A stretch of 63,782 bases of DNA, the filler included, from an uncultured Ignavibacteriales bacterium (GTDB lineage Bacteria; Zixibacteria; MSB-5A5; GN15; JAAZOE01): the NCBI GenBank assembly GCA_964611355.1. It is 3 parts of 3 records of this genome, joined end to end, with 100 filler letters (N's around TTAATTAATTAA, not from the genome) between each part and the next. Parts side by side here need not be neighbours in the genome. Positions count along the whole stretch, not along the records: positions 1 to 26,504 come from CAZSYD010000030.1; 2 more parts are not named here. One strand, 5' to 3'. The position numbers and the translations under genes are program-made. The notes beneath the pieces are model-generated. The model was not told the origin of the DNA. It saw only the letters and a program-made list of their open reading frames with translations, and did no database searches. Position 1 is the stretch's first letter. Every line of letters starts with the position of its first letter. This document shows positions 2,752-35,679 of this stretch, piece by piece.

Positions 2752-3929
2752 CGGTCTTTTCTCTCCGTGCGGACCCAGCCAAGACGTTTGCGTTTGACGA
2801 GAGCCTTCAACTGAAGGATCAACAGCCAGAAACCAAAATAAGGAACGTGAAGAAGGGCCTTTAGGGCGGCTTTCTTATCGGCCACGTAAAACAGCCCGGA
2901 GACCAAATACAGAACAAGCAGGACCATCAGGGAAACGGCCCAGATTAGAAATCGAAATTTCCATGGCGAAGCGCTGAAAAATGAGAGCATTAGAGGAATA
3001 AAAGCGATAAAAATCAACATCGGACGGCTGAGGATCAGCGTGGAGAAAGCAAGCTCCAGCAGGTCGAGTCGGCCTTTGCTAAAACCAGCCCCAATAAGCG
3101 ACGGCATCTTTTCGGTTATCAGACTGAACGTTCCCGAAGCCCATCTTTCCTTTTGAGTATACGAATGGTCATAGGTCGATGTAGCCGGAGACTCCACAGC
3201 GCTTTCGGTCGAAAAGTCGATCCTGACGCCCTCTTTTATCAGCCCGACGGCATAATCTACATCTTCGGTGACGGAGTACGAATCCCAGGGATGTTTTTTC
3301 AAAACATCAGTCCTGACGGCCATTCCCGTTCCACGCAGGAGGATCGGCAAACGAAGAACCGACCGACCCCGATAGAAGAGTATGTTTTCGGCCATGTTGC
3401 CCATTTGCTGCAGACACGCCAGCGGGCTTTTCCGATCAATATAAAACCGGTTGGAAACCTGAACAGCGCCGGCGCCGCCTTCAAAGGCGCGAGCCATTGC
3501 CTTTAGCATATTTGGCTTGACGAGGGTGTCGGCATCGACAACGACCACGGCGTCGAATTCATCCAGATCATATTGTGCCATACCCCAGCGCAGTGCGTGC
3601 CCTTTCCCCCGGTTGAGCGTATCTTTTCGTTCCAGGACAGTGATGGCGGAAGCGCGCGTTACCTCGGCGGTATTGTCGTCGCAGTTATCGGCTATGACCG
3701 CGATTTCGAGGCGACCGACGGTCTCCATAAGGCCCAAGCTTTGCAGAGCGGCTTTAATACCGGCGGCCTCATTATGGGCCGGAACCAGAACCAGAAAATC
3801 GTATTTCCCGGAAAGCTCAGGATATTTCTTCCTGCCAAAAATGCCAAAAAGACCCAGAAACCAGAGATACAGCACCGCCAGTGTCAGGGCCACCAGGATA
3901 ACGAGATTTATACCGCTTATAATATTCAA
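2748..3929 (-). CDS. Glycosyltransferase family 2, membrane-bound, processive-like
   Basis: 'VPAHNE', 'DNCDD', 'DAD', 'TED', 'QKERW'; N- and C-terminal TM helices. Confidence 0.88.
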   Translation of the reverse strand: MNIISGINLVILVALTLAVLYLWFLGLFGIFGRKKYPELSGKYDFLVLVPAHNEAAGIKAALQSLGLMETVGRLEIAVIADNCDDNTAEVTRASAITVLERKDTLNRGKGHALRWGMAQYDLDEFDAVVVVDADTLVKPNMLKAMARAFEGGAGAVQVSNRFYIDRKSPLACLQQMGNMAENILFYRGRSVLRLPILLRGTGMAVRTDVLKKHPWDSYSVTEDVDYAVGLIKEGVRIDFSTESAVESPATSTYDHSYTQKERWASGTFSLITEKMPSLIGAGFSKGRLDLLELAFSTLILSRPMLIFIAFIPLMLSFFSASPWKFRFLIWAVSLMVLLVLYLVSGLFYVADKKAALKALLHVPYFGFWLLILQLKALVKRKRLGWVRTERKDR

Positions 3930-5308
3930 TGGGCAATCCCCTCGTTCTCGGGAGGTCTTTGCTTGCTGTTATCTTTGTTGATATTGCAGATGGAGAAACG
4001 GAATTTACCCTGTTTGGTCTGTTTAATACTACCGACGAAACTGACGTCGTAACGCATTTTGCTACCGAATATCTCAATCACATTGCTTTTGAGCCGGGTC
4101 ATGCTTTTTTCTGAAAATTTATCGTCTTTGACAATGTTAAAATTAAGATAGTCGTACCGGTTTTGAATTATCTGCACCTGTTTGAAACCTGGAATATGAA
4201 TCACGAACGTATCCAGAATGGATATGCCGAATACCGGTTTACCGTCGGGAGTATAGAGAAAATCGGCGGTTCGACCGGAGACCTCCTTCAGGCGTGGAAG
4301 CGTTCTTCCGCATGGACATTTCCCCGGCAAGGCAACGGCAAAGTCACCGATTTCATACCTGATAAGCGGCATCGCATAATTGACAAGGTCGGTAATGACC
4401 AGTTTTCGGGGCAGGTTTTCATCATCTCCCAAAAGCTCAAGATAAAGGCCCTCGGCGAAAATATGCATCCCCTGGTGGGCCTCGCATTCGGACGCTATTA
4501 TAGAAAGCTCCTCGCAACCGTAGCGATTAAACACCGACGATCGGAATACATCTTCAATTACTTTTCGCTCCCTGTCGGTAAGCACCATCGCGGTAGTTAT
4601 GATGCCCTTGAAGGAAATACCGCCGACACCTTTCTCCCGGACATACTTGGCCAGTCGATAAACCGAATGGGCATGACCCATCAATATCTGCGGATGAAGT
4701 GTCCGTATCTTTCCAAGGAAAGCTTCAATATGTTCTTCGTCAAACTTGAGGGTATCGAGATAGAAGGCGCGCTCGGTCAGCATGTTCCTGATGCGTTCCT
4801 TCAACGGTAACGGTTTGTCGGTATCTCCCCAGACGCAGGCTGTCCGGACGCCGGGAACAAGATCAGCCCATCCGTTATGCCTCATGGCCGCGGCTTTCTT
4901 AATAGCGGCTGCATCACGATCGATGTAAATATGAAGCGGGACGCCGGTCGATCCGCCTGTTCTTTTATGGATTGTGTTCTTGCGCGTATATCCGTCGGAA
5001 AACATCTGATCGGAAGCGTTCCTGATATCATCTTTGGTTAGAAGCGGCAGCTTTTCCATGGTTGAAATATCAGTCAAATCACCGGGATGAAAGCCGCACT
5101 GATCGAAACGCTTCCGGTAGAATCGGTTATATTTATGGCAGAAGGCGATTAGCTTCTTCAGCCTTTCCAGTTGCAATTTGTTAAGTGCATCCATAGAAAA
5201 GTACTGCGAGGAATCAAGCTCTTTTTTACGACGATTAAGGTCATACCCGTCACGCCTGATGAAATAACCGTAGGTGATATGTTTGATGATCGGCTTGAGT
5301 AAATCCAC
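3926..5308 (-). CDS. Phenylacetate-CoA ligase / CapK-family adenylate-forming enzyme
   Basis: 'LPLLTK', 'TGGSTGVP', 'RYGCEE', 'PLIRYEIGD', 'GKFR'. Confidence 0.85.
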   Translation of the reverse strand: MDLLKPIIKHITYGYFIRRDGYDLNRRKKELDSSQYFSMDALNKLQLERLKKLIAFCHKYNRFYRKRFDQCGFHPGDLTDISTMEKLPLLTKDDIRNASDQMFSDGYTRKNTIHKRTGGSTGVPLHIYIDRDAAAIKKAAAMRHNGWADLVPGVRTACVWGDTDKPLPLKERIRNMLTERAFYLDTLKFDEEHIEAFLGKIRTLHPQILMGHAHSVYRLAKYVREKGVGGISFKGIITTAMVLTDRERKVIEDVFRSSVFNRYGCEELSIIASECEAHQGMHIFAEGLYLELLGDDENLPRKLVITDLVNYAMPLIRYEIGDFAVALPGKCPCGRTLPRLKEVSGRTADFLYTPDGKPVFGISILDTFVIHIPGFKQVQIIQNRYDYLNFNIVKDDKFSEKSMTRLKSNVIEIFGSKMRYDVSFVGSIKQTKQGKFRFSICNINKDNSKQRPPENEGIAH

Positions 5309-15503: not shown

Positions 15504-16478
15504 ATGCGGATATCATATCGGCGGTTGAGCTTTTTGACTTTTTCTCTCCTGGCCGTCATGGTTTTTTCGGTATCGGCTTCGGCGGATGAATACGTCATCG
15601 GCCCTGAAGATCTGCTCCAGATCAGTTTCTGGCAGGAGCCGACTCTCAATCAGACGGTAATGGTCCGTCAGGACGGCAAAATCACTCTGTCGATTATCGG
15701 TGAAATCACCGCCGCCGGACTGACAAGCAATGAGCTGGCGGGGAAAATAGGAAAAGACGTTGCTCTTTACAATAAGAAGATATCTCAGGCAACAGTAACG
15801 GTAATAGGCTTTAACTCCCAAAAGGTTTATGTATCCGGCCAGGTATTTTCTCCCGGCAAGTTTACCTTTGAAGTTATCCCCGACCTCTGGACAATTATCA
15901 AGGAAGCCGGCGGAGCCAACGAACAGGGAGACTTGACCCGGGTAACGATCATCCGCTCCCGGGAATCAGGCGGCGAGGTAATAATGGTCAATGTCCTTGA
16001 GGCCGTCCGCAGTGGCCAACTGGACCGGCTGCCGAAATTACGAATGGGCGACACCGTTGAAGTCCCGAAGACAGCCGGCAATGTCCCCGGGCATCAACTG
16101 GCGACCGATTATACCGACCAGAAAAACCTGTTTTACGTTCTTGGCCAGGTGCGAGTGCCGGGTCAGCATCCTTACGAGGGTAAAACCGATATTTTTGACG
16201 CCATCGGTGCCGCCGGTGGGCTGACCGAGCTTGCCAACCCGGCAAAAATAAGCATCATCACCAAGAGTTCCGAAGGAACGACCGTTATCAAGATCAATTT
16301 GAAGGAATATCAGGACGAAGGGAAAGCAAGGCGCATCCTGATTAAACCGGAAGACACGATTATCATCGGCGAAAAAAGCCGGTCGTTTTTCAGTTGGCAG
16401 ATGCTTCGCGACGTCGGCGCCATTGCCGGCGCCGTTACGACAGTAATATTGTTGATAGACAGGTTGAATAATGACTGA
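15504..16478 (+). CDS. Polysaccharide export protein (Wza-like, Poly_export plus SLBB domains)
   Basis: Signal peptide; 'YVIGPEDLL', 'VRQDGKI', 'AAGLT'; two 'V.GQV..PG' SLBB repeats. Confidence 0.85.
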   Translation: MRISYRRLSFLTFSLLAVMVFSVSASADEYVIGPEDLLQISFWQEPTLNQTVMVRQDGKITLSIIGEITAAGLTSNELAGKIGKDVALYNKKISQATVTVIGFNSQKVYVSGQVFSPGKFTFEVIPDLWTIIKEAGGANEQGDLTRVTIIRSRESGGEVIMVNVLEAVRSGQLDRLPKLRMGDTVEVPKTAGNVPGHQLATDYTDQKNLFYVLGQVRVPGQHPYEGKTDIFDAIGAAGGLTELANPAKISIITKSSEGTTVIKINLKEYQDEGKARRILIKPEDTIIIGEKSRSFFSWQMLRDVGAIAGAVTTVILLIDRLNND

Positions 16479-17991
16479 TACAACGCCGCCAAAAAAAGAA
16501 TCGGTAATTGAAGTCAGAGACATTATCTCTATTCTGTTTCGGAGAAAGTGGCTGATAATCCTGCCGGTTGTTCTGGTAACGGCAACGGCATTTGGAGGTT
16601 CCTTCCTGCTGGAGAAGCGGTACCAGTCGTCCACCATGATTGTAATTGACCAGACCGAATACCTTTCCAAGCAATTGCAGGCGCTGGTGCCCGGAGAAGA
16701 TAACCAGCGTATGACGCGGGCGGAAAGTAACAGCCGACTGATCGCTATCCGTAACGAGATAATATCGAGCGCCTACCTTTCCCGCCTGATTGACGAATTG
16801 GAGCTGACGCAGAATACCGAAGTGATTGACCGGGCGCAGAAGCTGCACTCAGGACGTCCCGATATACCGGTCAACCAGCTTGTTTATTATATCCTGATCG
16901 AAGACCTGAGAGACAATATAGACGTCAGCTTTAACGGGATAAACATTATCGAAATCACGGCCGAGTCATCAGAACCGGCCAAGGCGATGAATATCGCCTC
17001 CCGGCTGGCGGAAATATACAAGGACGAACAGCTAAGACGGGAACTCAGCGGGGTTAGGGGCGCACTCGATTTTTCGGATGAGCAATTGGCCATCTATAAG
17101 AAAAACCTTGAAGAGGCGGACAGGGAAAAAGCCGAGTTTGCAGCCGAATACCTGCGCAATCAACTGGATGAATCGGTATCAGCCGATGCCAACATTCGGA
17201 CCATCATGGCCGACGTTGATAATATCGAGCTCCTGATTGACGACAACATAAAGGAACAATCCCGGGTACGCGGCAAGCTGGCCGGTTACAAAAAGTCGCA
17301 GCTTGTCCTGAAATACGGCAATGATTTTAGGCGGTTAAAAGAAACCGTCTTCACTGAAACGCAAAGGCTGGCCGATTTCATGTCCAAATATACCTGGTCC
17401 GACCCCAAGGTCCTGAACGCCAACCTGAATATAAATAACCGGTTGCAAGAATTGAAAAGCATGATCGCGGAAAAAGTACGAAAACAGTTTGATGAAGCAT
17501 CGCCTGAAGACCGGGAATTACTTACCGAGTTTTTTGCCTTGCGATTGCGGGAAGATGTTTTCCGGCAGAAAAAGAGTGATTTCGAAGTATCGCTGTCAAC
17601 TCTTCGCAACAGGATCGCCCGCCAGCCGGAGTATGAAATCCAGATGCGAAACCTGGAAAATGAAGTCCATTCCGCCCGGGATATATACGAAAAGTTCAAG
17701 GATCAATTGACCGGTTCGGAGATTTCCCAGTCGCTGATGCGGGGCGGGGCGGAATCAAAATACCGTATTATGGAACCGGCTTCGGTGCCGCTGGCGCCGG
17801 TAAAGCCGAATCGTGAGAAAATCGTCGTGCTCGGAGCAATCCTCGGATTCATTATTGGCGGAGTTGTTACTATCCTGGCGGAATTGCTGGACAATTCCTT
17901 CAAAAAGGTCGAAGACGTGGAGGAATTTCTGGGCGTCAGGGTGCTGGCCACCATTCCCAATATCCCCTCCATGCGAAAAGCCAAGGTATAA
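16471..17991 (+). CDS. Polysaccharide co-polymerase (Wzc/GumC N-terminal type) without a fused kinase
   Basis: 'RRKW' plus TM, long coiled coil, 'P..P.KP' plus TM, ends 'LG..VLATIP'. Confidence 0.85.
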   Translation: MTDTTPPKKESVIEVRDIISILFRRKWLIILPVVLVTATAFGGSFLLEKRYQSSTMIVIDQTEYLSKQLQALVPGEDNQRMTRAESNSRLIAIRNEIISSAYLSRLIDELELTQNTEVIDRAQKLHSGRPDIPVNQLVYYILIEDLRDNIDVSFNGINIIEITAESSEPAKAMNIASRLAEIYKDEQLRRELSGVRGALDFSDEQLAIYKKNLEEADREKAEFAAEYLRNQLDESVSADANIRTIMADVDNIELLIDDNIKEQSRVRGKLAGYKKSQLVLKYGNDFRRLKETVFTETQRLADFMSKYTWSDPKVLNANLNINNRLQELKSMIAEKVRKQFDEASPEDRELLTEFFALRLREDVFRQKKSDFEVSLSTLRNRIARQPEYEIQMRNLENEVHSARDIYEKFKDQLTGSEISQSLMRGGAESKYRIMEPASVPLAPVKPNREKIVVLGAILGFIIGGVVTILAELLDNSFKKVEDVEEFLGVRVLATIPNIPSMRKAKV

Positions 17992-18069: not shown

Positions 18070-18726
18070 ATGAGCAGTAGAAATCGAAAAGCGATAATTG
18101 CCATACTAATCTTGATCGTATTTGGCGGCTTTGGCGCCTATGTGCACGGTCATCAGGTTGAAATTGATCGCCCGGCGGATTTCGACCGGATACCGCTCGA
18201 AACGGAAAAATATTTCGGCGTCGAGCACCGCTTTGCGGAATACACTTACGATGTCTTGAAAGCCGACACGACCACCTTGCGGATGTACCGTGACAAAACC
18301 GGCGATGTTTTCTGGCTGTTTGTCGCCTATTTTTCCAGCCAGAAATACGGCTCGCAGATTCATTCCCCCATTACTTGTGTCCCGGGTGGCGGATATCGTA
18401 TCCTGACGATTGAACCATATGTAATCGATCTCCATAACGGAAGTAGTATAAATGTGCGAAGACTATTAATCGCCAGCCAAAGACGCAAGGAGGTTATGCT
18501 TTATTGGTTTGAAACCAGAAGCGGGGTTATCTCCGGCGAATACGGGCTGAAATTCGATCTTATGAAAAACTCGATATTCCTTCTCCCGACCGACGCCGCC
18601 ATCTGCCGGGTGACAGTCCCGTTGTCTTTGGATGCCGATTTCGAAAAAGCCTCCGGGCGAGCGGCCGAATTCGTCCGAGACATCTATCCTGCCGTCCAGG
18701 CCGCTCTGCCCTTCTACGATTCCTGA
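18070..18726 (+). CDS. epsI: EpsI family protein (exosortase-associated)
   Basis: 'LFVAYFSSQ', 'IHSP..C.PG.G', 'YWF', 'TDAA'; N-terminal TM. Confidence 0.8.
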   Translation: MSSRNRKAIIAILILIVFGGFGAYVHGHQVEIDRPADFDRIPLETEKYFGVEHRFAEYTYDVLKADTTTLRMYRDKTGDVFWLFVAYFSSQKYGSQIHSPITCVPGGGYRILTIEPYVIDLHNGSSINVRRLLIASQRRKEVMLYWFETRSGVISGEYGLKFDLMKNSIFLLPTDAAICRVTVPLSLDADFEKASGRAAEFVRDIYPAVQAALPFYDS

Positions 18727-18817: not shown

Positions 18818-19885
18818 TCACTTCAGCAGTATCATTTTCTTTGTATTCATGAATTCGCCGGTCTTGAGGCAATAAAAATAAACGCCTGCGGCTGCCGGCC
18901 TTCCTTCCGAATCGTGGCCGTTCCAGGCAATTGTATAAGTTCCTGCCGGTTTGATTTCATCAACCAGCGTATTAATATACTGACCCAGAACATTATAAAT
19001 CGAAAGGCTCACGTGCATATTTTTTGACAGGGAGTATTCGATTACCGTTCCGGGATTAAACGGATTGGGATAATTTTGGGACAACTTGAATTTGACGGGC
19101 GGATTGACAACTTCGTCATCGCCGGTGTCTTCATCACTTCCCGCCACGGCGGAGGCGATATTGGATAATTCCGAGCCCTTGCCGGCGGTGTTATAGACTA
19201 TTATGGCCGCCCAGTACCCGCAGCCCGGGTTAAGGCCTGTCAGATTAAATGTTTGCTTTTCGCCGGCCGGAAGAGGATCAGGGGAGTCCGGCCATAAGTC
19301 CGCGCTTCCCAGGTTTACCTTGTCAATTGTATCACGGGAATAAATTATCTCGTAATGGTCGACGTCTGCCGGGACAGTCCAGCAAAGTATTATTTCGCAC
19401 GGGTTATCACCGGTGGATGCGACCAGATCATCGATGGCAACCGGCAAGATCTGTTTATCGTGAGTTCTTATGGCCGCAACATTGGATAACGGCGACCAAT
19501 TCATGGCATCGTCAACGGTTCGGACATCGAAAAAATAGAGAGTGCCCGGAAGCATGGCTGCGACCGTGCATGATTCAACCATGCCGGCCGGTCTCGGCGT
19601 CGGCTCGTCGACCACCTGCGTCGCCTTGTCCCAGTTGTCTTCGGTAATCATCGTTGTCAAGTAGCGAATATCATATTCCTTCGCCGTGCCGTAATTGCCG
19701 TCGTTCCCCGGAGCCGTCCAGGTCAGCGTAATCGAGACGGCCTCCACAACCGCCGCTGACACGTATTGCGGAGAAACGGCTACCCCGATAGAAAGAAAGA
19801 TAAGTAAAAGCAGACCCGTATGCGAGCGACCTGCGATCCGTGTTCTGAAACTATTGTTTTCCCGAATGCGAATGACTGCCTCCAT
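18818..19885 (-). CDS. Secreted protein: two Fn3 domains plus FlgD/Por-secretion-like C-terminal tail
   Basis: 'SITLTWTAPG', 'NWSPLSN', 'LSQNYPNPFNP...KKMILLK'. Confidence 0.85.
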   Translation of the reverse strand: MEAVIRIRENNSFRTRIAGRSHTGLLLLIFLSIGVAVSPQYVSAAVVEAVSITLTWTAPGNDGNYGTAKEYDIRYLTTMITEDNWDKATQVVDEPTPRPAGMVESCTVAAMLPGTLYFFDVRTVDDAMNWSPLSNVAAIRTHDKQILPVAIDDLVASTGDNPCEIILCWTVPADVDHYEIIYSRDTIDKVNLGSADLWPDSPDPLPAGEKQTFNLTGLNPGCGYWAAIIVYNTAGKGSELSNIASAVAGSDEDTGDDEVVNPPVKFKLSQNYPNPFNPGTVIEYSLSKNMHVSLSIYNVLGQYINTLVDEIKPAGTYTIAWNGHDSEGRPAAAGVYFYCLKTGEFMNTKKMILLK

Positions 19886-20048
19886 ACCTGCATAATCGTC
19901 CTTTCAGTGGCAAGCTTGAGTAGATTCAAAAATATGATTACCCGGAGAAAAAAAAACGGGCAGGCGGTCGTTCGCTCGGATGATATCCAAAGTACAGCTA
20001 TTGGTAAAAAACGGGCTGCGGCACGAGATACGGGAAATTGCAAATATC

Positions 20049-20089
20049 AAATAAATAAGGCGGGAGGCCGGTCAAATAAGCCTCCCGCC
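20049..20089 (-). terminator. Intrinsic terminator after the middle Fn3 gene
   Basis: 10-bp stem GGCGGGAGGC/GCCTCCCGCC followed on the minus strand by TTATTTATTT. Confidence 0.75.
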
Positions 20090-20120
20090 GGTATACGGCA
20101 GTGAGTGCATCGGCAGGCAT

Positions 20121-20999
20121 TTAGATATTAATGGATTGTCTGACTAAAATATAATGACCGCTTGTCATGACACGGCTATCGGCAATCCCGCCGGGCAGGT
20201 TAATTCTTATCGCCGCCAAGTCGTCAATTGCAGCCGGAGGAATATTATCGATAGTCGAGGCGCTGCTGACATTGGACAGGCCCGACCAGTTTGGAACTTC
20301 ATCAGCCGCCTTGATCGCAAAATAATATGTCGTATCGGGATTCAGGCCGCCAACGGTGAAACTTTCATCGCTGCCCGCTGTCTGCGGGCTTGGCTCGCCG
20401 TCAACCTGTACGGCCGTCTCCCAGTTGGCGTCGGTTATCGGCGATGTTGAACAACGAATATCATACACCGAGGCGGTGCCGCTGGAACCGTCGTCCCCGG
20501 GGGCAGTCCAGGTAAGCGTGATACTGACGGCGGTCGCATTTCCCGCCGCCAGGTCGGCGATGACCGCCGGAGGTATTTCCTCGTCGAGGGTCTGACGGGA
20601 TACGACGTTGGAAAGTGCAGACCAGTTGGGGACCTCATCCGCCGCCTTGATCGCAAAATAATAAGTAGTACCCGAAGAAAGTCCTTCAACCGTAAGCGTT
20701 TCGGCGCTTCCGGCCGGCTGTGGAGCCGGCTCGCCGTCAACCTGTACGGCCGTCTCCCAGTTGGCGTCGGTAATCGGAGAAGCTGCATAACGGATGTCGT
20801 ATTGCAGGGCCGTTCCGATCGTCCCGTCGTCACCCGGAGCCGTCCATGTAAGAGTAATCGACGTCGGCGTCGCTTCCTGAGCCATTGCCGTATCGCCGGT
20901 AATAGAAACGACAAATACGATTAATGACACTGACGTCATTAAAAAAGCGACGCGATGTCTGCGAACATCCCGCCGTAACTTTAGCGCAAGGGCTGGCAT
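20121..20999 (-). CDS. Secreted protein with two tandem Fn3 repeats and no sorting tail
   Basis: Two copies of 'SITLTWTAPGDDG...YDIR...YYFAIKAADEVPNWS.LSN'. Confidence 0.85.
   Translation of the reverse strand: MPALALKLRRDVRRHRVAFLMTSVSLIVFVVSITGDTAMAQEATPTSITLTWTAPGDDGTIGTALQYDIRYAASPITDANWETAVQVDGEPAPQPAGSAETLTVEGLSSGTTYYFAIKAADEVPNWSALSNVVSRQTLDEEIPPAVIADLAAGNATAVSITLTWTAPGDDGSSGTASVYDIRCSTSPITDANWETAVQVDGEPSPQTAGSDESFTVGGLNPDTTYYFAIKAADEVPNWSGLSNVSSASTIDNIPPAAIDDLAAIRINLPGGIADSRVMTSGHYILVRQSINI
20392..20771. repeat. 44-bp exact direct repeat (20392-20435 and 20728-20771), 336-bp period
   Basis: GGCTCGCCGTCAACCTGTACGGCCGTCTCCCAGTTGGCGTCGGT occurs twice. Confidence 0.9.
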
Positions 21000-21026
21000 G
21001 ATTTTTCTCCTTATTATTGAGGCGAA

Positions 21027-22721
21027 TTACTTCAACAAGACCATTTTCCTGGTGTCTATATCGCTGCCTGCCCAAACGCGATATGTATACACGCCGGAGA
21101 CCACCGGATTGCCGCCGGCATCGGTACCGTTCCAGGTTACTGAATAGGCACCGGCCGGTTTGATTTCATCGACTATTTTGGCAACAAGCTGCCCCAGGAC
21201 ATTGAAAATAGAAATACTCACATGCGCTTCCGACGGCAGGGAGTATTCAATCATCGTCGTTGGATTAAACGGGTTGGGATAGTTCTGAGACAGGCTGAAT
21301 TCCGTCGGCAGATTATCGGTATCATCATCAACATCGGCCCCGAAATCGAATCCGGCTATTCCATTGGCAATATTGGACAGTTTGGATGCGTTATTAACCT
21401 CGTCAAAAACGACCATCGCCACCCAGTATTCACCGGCCTGGTCAAGACCGGTTAAAGTGAAGGTTTGGATTTCTCCCGCAGGAAGAGGGACGGGCGGAGT
21501 CGGCCAGATGTCAGCCTCCTGCCGGTTCGCCTCGGTTAGAGTGTCGCGGGAATAAGCTATCTGATAATGATGAGCGTTGGTCGGTACGGTCCAGGTCAGA
21601 ATTAAATCGCCTATATTATCTCCGGTTGCGGCAATCAAGTCATTGACGGCTTCGGGAGGCGTTTGTTCAATATAATAAAATGCAACCGGGTTTGTCCAAG
21701 ATGAATAACCGCCGCCGTCAAAGGCGCGGATCCTCCAGCGGTACCAGACATCGGCGGCGAATTGATACTGGGGCGTAAACGATGTAAACGGGTCGATTCC
21801 CTGGCCAATGCCTGAAACGAACAAAAGAAGCGCCGTACCCGCCGAATCATAAAGCTCGACCTGATAAAATATCTGATCATCCTCCGGATCGGCGGCATTG
21901 TACCAAACCAGCCATAAGGGCGATAATGTTGCCGTGTCCCCGTTGGCCGGATAATACGCCACAGGTACACCGGGAGGATTATTGTTACCGGCGATATTAA
22001 CCGTAAATGACATCGGCGTCATCCACTCGCCATAGGCGGAGCCGTTAAACACCCGCGCCCGCCAGTAATAAAGCATCCCGTCCAACAGCTCGGTACTGAC
22101 CTGCCAGGAAGTATATTCGGCGCCGGCCGGAATAGCTTCCGACTGGGCCGCCAGAGTCGAAAAATCGGAATATATCGACACTTCAAAATAATAGGTTACC
22201 GGATCGCCTTCGGGATCGATCACGTTGCCGACAATCAGGTATGGCCTGAGATTTTCGGCAACTCCCTGGTCGGAGGGAGATATTCCTTCCGGCGGCGGAA
22301 GCGGTTCATCAAGAGTTCTTCCAACCATAATATTTGAAACGGTCGACCAGTTGGGAACCTCATCAGCAGTTTTAACGGCAAAATAGTAATCCGTTTCCGG
22401 TATCAGTCCGCTGACCGTAACCCTTTCGGCATGCCCGGCCGCCTGCGGTGCAGGCATATCGGCAACCTTTACCGCCTGATCCCAGTTTTCTTCCGACAAC
22501 GGGGAGGTTAAATAGCGGATATCATATTCCGTCGCGGTTCCTGACCCGCCGTCATCCCCCGGGGCCGTCCAGTTAAGGGTAATGGAAGTTGAGGTGGCGT
22601 CGCCGGCCAAGGCATTCCGGGGCACGGCAAAGATCATGAGGATCAGTCCAACGGCCAATAAAAGAACTCGGCCGAAACCTGAAATACGACTCAATATATG
22701 ATTGGAAGAAATCGACGGCAT
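21027..22721 (-). CDS. Secreted multi-Fn3/Ig protein with FlgD/Por-secretion-like C-terminal tail
   Basis: Signal peptide; Fn3; two 'DPE.D...Y...Y.WR.RA' Ig-like modules; Fn3; 'LSQNYPNPFNP...KMVLLK'. Confidence 0.85.
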   Translation of the reverse strand: MPSISSNHILSRISGFGRVLLLAVGLILMIFAVPRNALAGDATSTSITLNWTAPGDDGGSGTATEYDIRYLTSPLSEENWDQAVKVADMPAPQAAGHAERVTVSGLIPETDYYFAVKTADEVPNWSTVSNIMVGRTLDEPLPPPEGISPSDQGVAENLRPYLIVGNVIDPEGDPVTYYFEVSIYSDFSTLAAQSEAIPAGAEYTSWQVSTELLDGMLYYWRARVFNGSAYGEWMTPMSFTVNIAGNNNPPGVPVAYYPANGDTATLSPLWLVWYNAADPEDDQIFYQVELYDSAGTALLLFVSGIGQGIDPFTSFTPQYQFAADVWYRWRIRAFDGGGYSSWTNPVAFYYIEQTPPEAVNDLIAATGDNIGDLILTWTVPTNAHHYQIAYSRDTLTEANRQEADIWPTPPVPLPAGEIQTFTLTGLDQAGEYWVAMVVFDEVNNASKLSNIANGIAGFDFGADVDDDTDNLPTEFSLSQNYPNPFNPTTMIEYSLPSEAHVSISIFNVLGQLVAKIVDEIKPAGAYSVTWNGTDAGGNPVVSGVYTYRVWAGSDIDTRKMVLLK

Positions 22722-33056: not shown

Positions 33057-33577
33057 TACCTTCGCTCCCGGTTCTCAAGCCTGACCAGCAGAGGATAACA
33101 AACGGGAAAGATAATCGCGTTGGAAAGAATAGTCAAAAGCGCAAACGATAAATTGGACAAAATCGACGGCCAGAAAGGGCCATATAACCAAGCCAGTACA
33201 AGGCTGACAATGATCTGAAAGACCAGACCGGCCGCCAGCCCCAAAAGACCGAAAATAAAAAAACCATGTGATACGACTTTTCTTACAACCGACGAACCGG
33301 CCATTGTCGCCCCCAAGCCGCCCACCAGCATCATCCCGACAATTTGGGAAATAGTAGTCGGCACAGAAGCCATGCCGTATGGATTAAAAACCGTCCAGAG
33401 AAACATGCCAAGGCCGCCGACGGTTAGTCCGGCGGTCAGGCCGAAAAGCGCCCCGGCGGTAAAAACGACAATAAAGATAAGACTGACATTGGGAATATAG
33501 ACGCTGACCAGAGCCGAAACATACGCCAGGGCGGAAAATAATGCCACCCTGGCGGCAAACTTCCCATCAGTTTTCAT
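33053..33577 (-). CDS. ECF transporter S-component
   Basis: 174 aa, 5-6 TM; 'A..A...AL' in helix 1; 'IPNV', 'G..FG...G..VG', 'FNPYG'. Confidence 0.7.
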   Translation of the reverse strand: MKTDGKFAARVALFSALAYVSALVSVYIPNVSLIFIVVFTAGALFGLTAGLTVGGLGMFLWTVFNPYGMASVPTTISQIVGMMLVGGLGATMAGSSVVRKVVSHGFFIFGLLGLAAGLVFQIIVSLVLAWLYGPFWPSILSNLSFALLTILSNAIIFPVCYPLLVRLENRERRY

Positions 33578-35679
33578 CGCAGGACAACGAACTTTTTAAC
33601 CTCGGTTTTCCCCGCAAACTCAATAATCGCCAGATAAGCTCCCGCCGCCACCGTTTTGCCTTCTTCGTTGGTAAAATCCCATTCAACGACCGCCGCGCCG
33701 GCCTCAACCGATTGCGGATCGAAATCTTTTACTTTTTCCCCGGCAATGTTGAAAATCGTAACTGTCATAACATCATTCTCGCCGGCCGATTCGGTCGCCT
33801 GCTCGGCTTTGAAAGTAATAAATTCGACGTTTTGCACCCAGGCCGGATTGGGATAAGGCTCCCGGATTCTATCTTCACCTACCGAGAGGATAGAAAAAAC
33901 AGAATCGGATACATCATACTGCGAAGCGTTATCGGCGTCGGAAATACGGATCAGACAGGAGTCGGACGGGCTGTCCGGAACCGTCCAATCATAGACGAAA
34001 TCATTTTCGGTGGTATCCTGCGTGAACCACGTCTGTCCATTATCCGGCGACAATTCGATCACGACTGTCGATACTGAATCGCCATAATACCACGCGATTT
34101 GATAGGACGTGCCGGAATATATGTTCTCACCGCCGTTCGGCTGAAAAACCCCCTCTTCCAGAGGGGTGATGTTCATCGTATAGCCAGCTTCCCATTCGTC
34201 GCCTCCCAGTACTGACGGTATCAGCACAATTTTGTCAAACTCAGATGTATTCGAAATAAAAACGCTTCTGGTTGACGAATCGTAAACCGTCGTGTCGACA
34301 AACACCGGCTGGCAAGTATCGGAGACGTCAACAGGCAGGCCAACCACGGTAAGTCCCCAGGGTTGGGTAGAGTCAGGCTGGAAGACAAGTACCAGACTGG
34401 ACGGTACTGATGAAAGGTTAGTAAGCAAGATATAATTGGCGCCGAGGTTATCAGGAAGCACGCTGTCGGGGACGGAAACCACCGCAGGGTAACTGTTTAC
34501 CTGAGCGGCATATGTTATTCGTGCGTAGTTTATCGCCTCAGGGAAGTAGCTCCCGGTGCGCGCCCATGTTCCGGTAAAGAGATTCCAGAGGGTAAACCTG
34601 CGATACATTTCCCGCATATTAAGCGAATCATCCGATGCCGCTCGAATCGCTTCGTCGGTGGCCTGCCACCAGTTGGGGCCGGGCACGTCGCCGCAGATTT
34701 CCCAGATATTTCTTATTATTTTCACCCCGAAATGCTCCTTCAGAAAAAGCGGCCAGACCACCGATCCGTACATATGCAGGTTTTGCCAGTTCTGAAGCGT
34801 ATTGAATGGCTTCTGGTAGCCGGTTCGCAGCGACCACTGAGGAACGGCGTAATAATAAAGCAAATAATTGTAATAATCATTGACGCTGGTGTAATGTTCC
34901 TCTTCCATGAATACAGCCGACATTTCAATCCAGGCGGAGCTCATGGAATTACCGGATCCTTCCGTTTCGGTAATATCAATGGCAAATTGCACCGAATGGG
35001 AAAATTCGTGAGCACAGGTCACCCGAAGGGCGAGGATATTCAGATCGCCCTCATACCCCAGAAAACCATTATAGTCATTTTCCAGCAGAATATAGGTGGT
35101 GGCGGTCAGGGGAAGCGTCGCCTGCACCTCATCAATCACCGTGGCGCCATAGTAGGACATATTAACAAAATATACATCCATGCGGCCGTCGCCGCCGCCG
35201 CTGTAGTAACCGTCCGAGAGCGGCGGGTCAAACCCCAGATCGCCTATGAGCGTATCGCCGGTCTGATGCTGATAAACGTATTCAAGAATCTGTCCGCCGC
35301 GGACGATATAATCGGGCGTCCCCGGCTCCAGTGTCTGTTGACTAAAGTGATAGACGGCATAAGACCCGTTATCCGTATAATGCAGCAGGAAATGATCGGT
35401 GCCATAAGTATAAGACAGGCTGTCGTGACGATCAAAAAGCTCTGTCGGTAAAGCGGCTCCGGCAGGCCGATTCATGACGAGATATTGCATCAGGGGCGTG
35501 CCCGATTTAATCGGCGCCGCCTGACCGGCCGCCACAAGTTCGGCATATTCCGCGTAATACGCGGTCAATTCGGCCGTCATTTGCTCCCACTCCTCGACTG
35601 TCATTTCTCCGGCCAAAGAGAAACCGCTCAGAAGCAGTAATATCAAAAGAAAGACTGTCTTTTTCACGTCAAACTCCAA
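33574..35679 (-). CDS. Secreted zinc metalloprotease (MXAN_6640-like) with Ig domain and FlgD-like tail
   Basis: 'HF.LHY', 'AHEFSHSVQ', 'W.E..A.FMEE', 'PNGGE', 'PYPNP...KKFVVLR'. Confidence 0.75.
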   Translation of the reverse strand: MEFDVKKTVFLLILLLLSGFSLAGEMTVEEWEQMTAELTAYYAEYAELVAAGQAAPIKSGTPLMQYLVMNRPAGAALPTELFDRHDSLSYTYGTDHFLLHYTDNGSYAVYHFSQQTLEPGTPDYIVRGGQILEYVYQHQTGDTLIGDLGFDPPLSDGYYSGGGDGRMDVYFVNMSYYGATVIDEVQATLPLTATTYILLENDYNGFLGYEGDLNILALRVTCAHEFSHSVQFAIDITETEGSGNSMSSAWIEMSAVFMEEEHYTSVNDYYNYLLYYYAVPQWSLRTGYQKPFNTLQNWQNLHMYGSVVWPLFLKEHFGVKIIRNIWEICGDVPGPNWWQATDEAIRAASDDSLNMREMYRRFTLWNLFTGTWARTGSYFPEAINYARITYAAQVNSYPAVVSVPDSVLPDNLGANYILLTNLSSVPSSLVLVFQPDSTQPWGLTVVGLPVDVSDTCQPVFVDTTVYDSSTRSVFISNTSEFDKIVLIPSVLGGDEWEAGYTMNITPLEEGVFQPNGGENIYSGTSYQIAWYYGDSVSTVVIELSPDNGQTWFTQDTTENDFVYDWTVPDSPSDSCLIRISDADNASQYDVSDSVFSILSVGEDRIREPYPNPAWVQNVEFITFKAEQATESAGENDVMTVTIFNIAGEKVKDFDPQSVEAGAAVVEWDFTNEEGKTVAAGAYLAIIEFAGKTEVKKFVVLR

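Follow-up and report, generated by a model that had tools for sequence, protein, structure and literature searches.

Why should a secreted protein lack the opening segment of its first domain and carry a spare copy of that segment after its last? The question is raised by three genes, here called A, B and C, in a window of 63,782 nucleotides from an uncultured bacterium of the Zixibacteria (assembly GCA_964611355.1). Positions 1-26504 of the window are one contig (C30) of the 2.57 Mb genome, which comprises 110 contigs and is 96.4% complete, and the three genes lie on that contig. As the initial annotation had proposed, all three genes, which proved to be minus-strand and to have the coordinates first given, encode proteins with fibronectin type III (Fn3) domains; the open reading frames (ORFs) of A, B and C encode 564, 292 and 355 amino acids, respectively, and all are matched by the Pfam fn3 family. 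Judged from sequence comparison, the observation on B is real and stronger than first noted, in that it reflects a family-wide shift in the register of the Fn3 repeats, a spare segment under apparent selection, and partner genes that recur beside it. Of the readings considered we prefer, with less than even confidence, one in which this segment would dock in trans at a first domain that lacks it, whether in A, in C or in a further copy of B.

All three proteins scored above the gathering cut-off of Pfam fn3 (PF00041, 25 bits), and A and C also scored above the curated cut-off of TIGR04183 (23 bits), the type A sorting domain of type IX secretion systems (T9SS; scores in Table 1). TIGR04183 had no match in B, whose profile matches were of Fn3 type only; in Pfam they comprised Fn3-type and other immunoglobulin (Ig)-like beta-sandwich families. 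The description of the flanking paralogues as ending in a complete Fn3 domain and a Por/FlgD-like tail fits what was found: both A and C have an Fn3-like domain with a lead-in, a FlgD_ig match and the TIGR04183 match.

Signal-peptide cut sites were predicted by eye with the small-residue (-3,-1) rule. The predicted mature N-termini were G40 (A), Q41 (B) and A45 (C), each exactly six residues ahead of the Ser that opens strand B, in keeping with the original claim that the mature proteins begin almost at that strand. Consistent with this, the first domain of B enters the Pfam fn3 model at position 9 of 84, and in A and C model positions 2-8 coincide with the end of the signal peptide. With these predicted termini, the first domains of A, B and C have neither the lead-in, a P-P-x-x-I-x-D-L stretch, nor nearly all of strand A; many relatives are without the lead-in alone. 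The seven-strand sandwich that includes strand A is therefore incomplete in the first domains of A, B and C, the other domains being unaffected, and the internal repeat of B keeps its lead-in ahead of strand B. Cys was absent in and after the signal peptides of all three proteins, which consequently have no lipobox. The orphan segment at the C-terminus of B indeed has no domain after it, as first described, but it is not the end of the protein: ...PPAAIDDLAA is followed by 29 residues (I264-I292), the stop codon and a terminator-like hairpin. This tail resembles the ends of longer tails in relatives of 407-415 amino acids.

With regard to the cut sites, Gln very commonly comes first after the likeliest cut in many homologues (A-x-A followed directly by Q), as at Q41 of B (20877-20879). 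The pattern recalls the pyroglutamate N-termini reported for secreted Bacteroidota proteins, and it supports the assumed cleavage positions.

In an AlphaFold2 monomer model, mature B formed two confident Fn3 domains with a mean predicted local distance difference test score (pLDDT) of 89, and the best PDB matches to this model in Foldseek were tandem Fn3 structures (E ~1e-8). The initial annotation had taken the PPxxIxDL stretch to be strand A itself. That assignment had to be revised: in the models of both B and its four-domain relative P0025 the stretch is a lead-in without a DSSP strand, and strand A is formed by the 3-5 residues that immediately follow (mature residues 111-113 in B; E155-157, E269-271 and E381-385 in P0025). 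The spare segment of B was modelled with a pLDDT of 90 falling to 77 and no DSSP strand, and the tail with a pLDDT of 52 falling to 40; in P0025 the first half of the spare segment lay beside the last domain with a pLDDT of 85.

A search of 5.8 billion proteins with B, in which 7148 candidates were scored, gave 3048 matches at E ≤ 0.001, and architectures were counted in the best 120 of these 3048 homologues. The 120 were classified by regular expressions, with P0025, P0073, P0017, P0094, P0096, P0099, P0065, P0118 and P0028 corrected by eye, and the class counts are thus hand-curated. Such a survey for a terminal PPxxIxDL had been suggested with the first description. A missing lead-in together with a spare T-x-D-x-x-P-P-x-x-I-x-D-L end, with no domain after it, was found in 70 of the 120; not one of the 120 lacked the lead-in and ended at strand G. 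A full lead-in was accompanied by an end at strand G, 12-14 residues past the NWS motif, in 18 homologues, many of which had a lipobox-like N-terminus, and by a spare segment in none. The remainder either had no lead-in and a sorting-domain end (14/120) or were cut by a contig end or of some other architecture (18/120). A further 14 complete spare-ended ORFs, nearly all from Zixibacteria records, were read among 79 loci on one-genome-per-species contigs. Two orthologues of 292 amino acids, P0008 and P0010 (89% and 87% identity to B), keep the whole tail. By this distribution the feature defines a large family and is not peculiar to the A/B/C trio; its members have at present no annotation beyond 'fibronectin type III domain-containing protein'.

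A tree was built from the first domains (100 rows, 98 columns), and the change between a lead-in with a plain end and no lead-in with a spare end mapped to one of its branches (1 change, 92/87, 90% of bootstrap trees). Inside the clade that has no lead-in, the spare-ended architecture is interspersed with the sorting-domain one, with 10 parsimony changes, at least three of them forced by supported branches. As a side observation, the type of N-terminus and the type of tail covary in the family: proteins without an L-x-A sequence after the cut, like B, mostly have extra hydrophobic or long tails, and in those with it the end is mostly short and bare. The pairing does not hold for P0015 and P0082, and it may simply follow clades.

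Conservation was examined in an alignment (A1) of 63 spare-ended proteins. They were chosen for having the motif, so that the presence of the motif is itself circular, and the degree of conservation at each position is given in the mature (full-length) numbering of B. Within the spare segment, D211 (D251), P215 (P255) and L221 (L261) were found in 63/63 proteins, P214 in 90%, D220 in 89% and I218 in 71%. The internal copy had A/P103 in 57%, P104 in 63/63, I107 in 75%, D109 in 48% and L110 in 94%; the spare segment is at least as conserved as the internal copies. Conservation dropped under 45% directly after L221, and every complete spare segment read by eye among the 120 homologues continued past the L for at least three residues, as many as DSSP assigns to strand A. 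The terminal linker is one residue shorter than the internal linkers and has an invariant D against their invariant E, which indicates that the spare segments are orthologous to one another and have a signature of their own.

The likeness between the two copies in B was also compared at the level of codons. Its two repeat units are identical at 77/112 amino acids and 221/336 nucleotides, with 38 synonymous and 35 non-synonymous codon differences. Between the spare and the internal segment there are 3 synonymous and 2 non-synonymous codon differences and P, P, I, D and L are kept, so recent gene conversion does not explain their likeness. Only three strain variants, too few for a test of selection, were found in the spare segment and tail on contigs of four runs, two of them synonymous and one R265G, and a metagenome scan found no relatives of B closer than ~69% identity. 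The conservation pattern in alignment A1 suggests that the spare segment is under selection.

The question of what the spare segment might bind was approached through the genes that accompany it. A motif scan of the source genome found first domains of the lead-in-less kind only in A, B and C, of which only B has a spare end. In the first-domain tree, A and C fell in a supported group of eight with B and the nearest spare-ended relatives (95/87), and were not grouped with other sorting-domain proteins. In G006, a genome of the same taxonomic family, the gene order is EpsI, exosortase EpsH, a spare-ended gene (269 amino acids), a sorting-domain gene (576 amino acids), thiamine diphosphokinase and PP2C, which is the arrangement at the A/B/C locus. 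The spare-ended and sorting-domain genes are 8-15 kb apart in G001, G002, G010 and G011 (neighbours annotated for G010). An adjacent gene on the same strand, with no lead-in and with a T9SS-sorting or FlgD-Ig-like end, was found in G006 and at 10 metagenome or genome loci (L049, L059, L093, L094, L101, L107, L110, L115, L116 and L150). L101 has partners on both sides of the spare-ended gene, as at the A/B/C locus. Several of the ten partnered spare-ended genes are only 45-50% identical to B, and the pairing thus extends to a distant lineage; the partners at these loci score just under the TIGR04183 cut-off (20-21.6 bits compared to 23).

Some further features of these neighbourhoods were recorded. 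The G006 orthologue of A, at 576 amino acids, is of the same length class as A. In G006 (L026 4942-6487) the spare-ended Fn3 gene has EpsH and EpsI as a pair directly beside it; in the source genome the sole match to exosortase EpsH is on another contig (G000 C13 23838-24599) and EpsI alone stands beside the Fn3 genes. L139, L154, L158, L161, L173 and L177, all from Zixibacteria, each have a small gene just upstream of an Fn3 gene of the family (Table 1); its product has a signal peptide, one lead-in-less Fn3 domain and a dockerin-like repeat end, and represents a third class with a vacant first domain. The downstream family gene is sorting-domain-ended in four of the six loci, cut by the locus end in L139 and spare-ended in L177. 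A gene at L028 18944-19672, just downstream of a sorting-domain Fn3 gene, matched Dockerin_1 (3.1e-07) and had no fn3 match at 1e-6.

How these parts might work together is suggested by their register, in that the predicted mature N-termini of A, B and C begin just after the point at which the conserved part of the spare segment ends. The Fn3 repeat register of the B family is shifted by one segment: the predicted signal peptidase cut falls at the place where the first domain would complete its lead-in and strand A, and the conserved spare copy follows the last domain. Docked in trans, the product would have the geometry of a normal tandem Fn3 array that is nicked at every connection between strand A and strand B. 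The B units would form a non-covalent chain, the last unit of which would plug into an A or C anchored at the surface, at its first domain, which would point outward, and the chain would be placed within the exopolysaccharide (EPS) layer made by the adjacent locus. A and C are T9SS cargo, and from their family membership the sorting domains are expected to fix both proteins to the surface of the cell. As A and C have an acceptor and no donor, the ends of the chain would be fixed by the T9SS and the B units would extend outward.

The machinery for such an anchor is present in the genome. PorU scored 625.8 bits against a cut-off of 420, the SprA matches summed to 555.7 bits in one frame of 2008 amino acids, and 41 sorting-domain matches exceeded the TIGR04183 cut-off; this search covered PorU, SprA and TIGR04183. 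The earlier suggestion that the tailed paralogues are caps or anchors fits their sorting domains, the presence of PorU and SprA, and the recurrent adjacency. It is unlikely, in our estimate, that the whole system is a strand-complemented surface fibre of a previously undescribed kind in the Fibrobacterota-Chlorobiota-Bacteroidota (FCB) superphylum. Such a fibre would consist of Sec-exported Fn3 subunits made 'sticky' solely by the position of the signal peptidase cut and joined head to tail through the C-terminal spare lead-in and strand A, and it would require neither a chaperone or usher nor a protease of its own. The paralogues with a T9SS sorting domain would hold the chain or convey it outward, and the export of a protein without such a C-terminal domain (CTD) would depend on its docking to T9SS cargo.

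Polymerisation is what we infer from this pattern, and the idea is attractive and has identifiable weaknesses. Several points weigh against trans docking, some of which come from the structure models. There was no structural result in favour of docking, the spare segment being strandless in the monomer models of B and P0025. AlphaFold2 modelled the first domain of B confidently without the lead-in segment, which is a measure of model confidence and not of stability. When two copies of mature B were submitted to complex prediction with the spare-end alignment, in a run without controls, the scores were 0.00 and 0.28 compared to a mark of 0.42, a result that by the rule of the method speaks neither for nor against binding. 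The vacant site may be shallow, because strand A is only 3-5 residues long by DSSP and PPxxIxDL is a lead-in. Many relatives (e.g. P0007, P0009, P0021, P0076, P0079 and P0084) keep L-x-A after the likeliest cut, and in P0025 this sequence was modelled by AlphaFold2 as a 5-residue strand (E43-47). With L-x-A retained and only the lead-in vacant, a donor strand would be superfluous unless it pushed out the strand already in place.

Points of the same bearing came from the family and its neighbourhoods. The tails past the spare segment vary by clade, being absent, ~13 hydrophobic residues or 30-50 residues in length; the longest end in a strand-like stretch to which the tail of B looks related, and simple strand donation does not require variable tails. 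The pairing of lead-in and end type, which maps to one branch, may record a single event and is not independent evidence. At least 10 spare-ended genes with at least 1.3 kb of flank have no adjacent partner, and adjacency of paralogues, on which the assignment of caps or anchors partly drew, can arise from tandem duplication alone. Finally, the route of B across the outer membrane is unexplained, because B has no sorting domain.

The main rival explanation is that there is no assembly in trans at all. The register shift would then be an inherited quirk, with the segment stabilising or capping its own last domain or serving as a short spacer, and B would be a soluble protein of two Fn3 domains that binds polysaccharide in the matrix or periplasm, like RbmA. 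The single branch in the first-domain tree and the short strand A kept in many relatives are in agreement with this explanation, as is the confidence with which AlphaFold2 modelled the first domain of B when the segment was absent from it. So too is the high confidence with which the first half of the spare segment was placed beside the last domain (pLDDT of 90 in B and 85 in P0025), as is the likeness of B, a secreted protein of two Fn3 domains in an EPS locus, to RbmA. The explanation is weakened by the normal-register relatives, which end 12-14 residues past NWS in 18/18 cases and so need no cap. It does not account for conservation that reaches I, D and L, which in the internal copies are plugged into the domain that comes next, and it gives no reason for the recurrent adjacency to lead-in-less paralogues with sorting domains. 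We judge it somewhat unlikely, slightly more so than docking in trans. The segment, with or without the tail, might instead be a targeting or attachment signal read by the T9SS, by an outer-membrane protein or by the exosortase/EpsI system. It is exposed solely at the C-terminus, the usual place of sorting signals, the classes of tail differ among clades as sorting tags do, some tails read by eye have hydrophobic residues in alternation with polar ones, as a terminal beta strand has, and the G006 gene is directly beside exosortase EpsH and EpsI. Identity as a PEP-CTERM/exosortase substrate (TIGR02595) was nevertheless rejected, as the segment and tail of B contain neither a hydrophobic transmembrane helix nor a basic cluster and none of the seven PEP-CTERM matches in the genome lies on the contig of B. 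Given also that B has no TIGR04183 match and that the motif is the same as that of the internal lead-ins, an indication that it naturally binds to an Fn3 domain, a signal of this kind is improbable.

The remaining explanations concern B as a single chain. Every spare-ended member of the family has donor and acceptor in one polypeptide, and the segment could in principle close back on the first domain of its own chain to give a closed ring and not a polymer. From the geometry of tandem Fn3 domains, however, the C-terminus of the two-domain rod of B would be separated by some two domain lengths from the base of domain 1, and the spare segment was strandless in the monomer models of both B (two domains) and P0025 (four domains). 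Fold-back within the chain had been named at the outset as a reading that would undermine docking; none was seen in the secondary structure of these two AlphaFold2 monomers, contacts within which were uninspected, and ring closure is very improbable. It had likewise been envisaged that B is a recent truncation, or a decaying copy of a longer sorting-domain paralogue. The start of its tail, I-R-I-N-L-P-G-G, when read by eye looks like a degraded strand B and P-G motif, and a similar gene is split over two frames in L169, where an ORF (2902-3744) ends inside the strand-B motif and overlaps an ORF in another frame (3593-4654) that runs to a sorting domain, by frameshift or assembly error. Against truncation, orthologues of equal length with 87-89% identity keep the tail, the shifted register is shared by 70/120 of the best homologues, the gene occupies the same syntenic position in a related genus, it has its own terminator-like hairpin, and two of the three strain variants in the tail are synonymous. 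That explanation is hardly credible.

If docking in trans is true, Fn3, among the commonest of extracellular folds, would be added to those from which strand complementation makes fibres, and the acceptor site would be created by signal-peptide cleavage alone. It would provide uncultured Zixibacteria and their relatives with a simple surface or matrix filament, and it would suggest a way in which proteins that lack a sorting domain could be displayed through the T9SS. The register rule, that is, no N-terminal lead-in together with a terminal T-x-D-x-x-P-P-x-x-I-x-D-L, is a sequence-level marker and makes the idea directly testable. If there is no docking, the shift would be a conserved but ordinary quirk of a repeat protein family.

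The features of the locus are listed in Table 1. The original statement that the cluster lies beside an EPS locus was confirmed: Wza, Wzz and EpsI adjoin it, together with many glycosyltransferase genes. EpsI is the last gene of the EPS export block that adjoins C, and beyond EpsI, Wzz and Wza there is a long run of glycosyltransferase, Wzy and flippase genes; the other flank, past A, has genes for thiamine diphosphokinase and a PP2C phosphatase. A and B look like one transcription unit and C like another, because B is 27 nucleotides downstream of A, a hairpin follows B and C has a promoter-like site of its own. The hairpin (centroid -24.1 kcal/mol, z = -2.1) was passed over by a consensus terminator scan, the scanner having a loop limit of 8 compared to its 9-nucleotide loop. 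The two modules in the middle of A (residues ~145-370) are alike in pattern and gave only a weak Ig_Rha78A_N match (9.8e-05, under the cut-off). On contigs of the public runs X5 and X6, position 20727 is joined to 20392, a step of 336 nucleotides that is exactly one Fn3 repeat unit of B. At this join 44 letters fit both sides, and it represents either three-repeat strain variants of B or an assembly path through the internal repeat. Positions 26505-63782 are outside contig C30, and genes there, which include that for a 701-amino-acid FlgD_ig protein at 33574-35679, can therefore not be treated as neighbours of the trio.

Table 1. Coordinates of the A/B/C genes, their parts and adjoining features (positions in the window unless a locus is named)
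Feature	Position	Strand	Remarks
Wza	15504-16478		EPS export block
Wzz/GNVR	16471-17991		EPS export block
EpsI (exosortase-associated protein)	18070-18726	plus	DUF3485 4.1e-40; TIGR02914 99.5 bits, cut-off 42.8
Gene C	18818-19885	minus	ORF of 355 amino acids; Pfam fn3 1.3e-15, 57.8 bits; FlgD_ig match
Gene C, T9SS type A sorting domain	residues 272-352, 18830-19072	minus	TIGR04183 39.6 bits
Gene C, first Fn3, lacking lead-in and strand A; Fn3-like second domain, lead-in present	from A45 (first Fn3)	minus	
Gene C, predicted signal peptide	residues 1-44	minus	
Promoter-like site belonging to gene C	19980-20008		motif match
Intrinsic-terminator-like hairpin after B	20048-20089	minus	11-bp G+C-rich stem, 9-nucleotide loop, T-rich run
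Gene B	20121-20999	minus	ORF of 292 amino acids; Pfam fn3 1.6e-18, 67.1 bits, 2 stretches
Gene B, C-terminal tail of 29 residues	I264-I292, 20124-20210	minus	predicted disordered
Gene B, spare (orphan) lead-in and strand-A segment	T249-A263, 20211-20255	minus	no domain after
Gene B, internal lead-in and strand A of second Fn3	P143-G153, 20541-20573	minus	reference copy for spare segment
Gene B, predicted signal peptide	residues 1-40, 20880-20999	minus	
Gene A	21027-22721	minus	ORF of 564 amino acids; Pfam fn3 5.5e-16, 59 bits; FlgD_ig 1.6e-11
Gene A, T9SS type A sorting domain	residues 481-561, 21039-21281	minus	TIGR04183 37 bits
Gene A, complete Fn3-like domain with own lead-in	about residues 372-465	minus	
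Gene A, two beta modules	about residues 145-370, about 21612-22287	minus	each ~100 amino acids
Gene A, first Fn3 without lead-in or strand A	from G40	minus	
Gene A, predicted signal peptide	residues 1-39, 22605-22721	minus	
Small genes upstream of family Fn3 genes	L139 2066-2689; L154 1915-2691; L158 1871-2668; L161 2095-2697; L173 1683-2318; L177 1826-2578		

The architecture was compared with known systems. Chaperone-usher pili (Pap/Fim) likewise have an incomplete Ig-like fold completed by a strand from the neighbouring subunit, and terminal subunits without donor or acceptor function. In these pili, however, it is the C-terminal G strand that is missing and an N-terminal extension that is the donor, so that A, B and C have the opposite polarity; they also need a PapD-type chaperone and an usher, and no match to PF00577 (usher) or PF00345 (PapD-like chaperone) was found in the 96.4%-complete genome. 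Identity with this class was rejected, as there is neither usher nor chaperone, the missing segment is N-terminal and the spare copy is C-terminal. A and C belong to the type A cargo of the T9SS by TIGR04183, and PorU and SprA are encoded in the genome. B and its whole subfamily have no sorting domain; a CTD-less protein that rides on or attaches to T9SS cargo through a shared Fn3 site was not found among the papers listed in literature searches.

RbmA of Vibrio cholerae resembles B in being a secreted protein with two tandem Fn3 domains that is encoded in an EPS locus. No specific relation in sequence between the two was seen, in that no RbmA-specific model was among the Pfam matches of B, and a spare terminal lead-in is not a known feature of RbmA. 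Subunits with Ig-like folds are joined by a donated strand in TasA, archaeal threads and cannulae. RbmA links cells and polysaccharide in the biofilm matrix (PMC5605196, PMC13278184). The Pam pili of the Candidate Phyla Radiation (CPR) also consist of Ig-like subunits joined by a donated strand (PMC13278184). Some fibres of this type need no usher. The Pam pili, TasA, archaeal threads and cannulae are of unrelated folds and families, with the donated strand in another position than in A, B and C, and none of them is known to be built from Fn3 repeats with a register shift. Literature searches, which did not cover subscription journals, found no description of this Fn3 architecture among the papers listed and nothing on Zixibacteria and fibronectin, and those on donor-strand and Fn3 filaments gave only the CPR Pam pili.

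By mechanism, the nearest known system would be the type V pilus (FimA/Mfa1), whose Bacteroidota hosts are in the same FCB superphylum as the source genome. Type V pilins are lipoproteins with two transthyretin-like domains that are cut by a secreted arginine protease; in contrast, A, B and C have Fn3 domains and no lipobox, and a cut by signal peptidase alone is proposed. No PF06321 (FimA) match was found in the 96.4%-complete genome, Mfa-like pilin families not having been searched, and FimA-type identity was rejected on the lack of a lipobox Cys, the lack of a PF06321 match and the Fn3 fold. In type V pili, C-terminal donor strands replace an N-terminal strand freed by proteolysis, and polymerisation proceeds head to tail without a chaperone or usher (PMC13655056). 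The anatomy of B, as predicted, is compatible with C-terminal donor-strand insertion, and the Fn3 architecture described here is possibly a new relative of the known strand-complementation systems.

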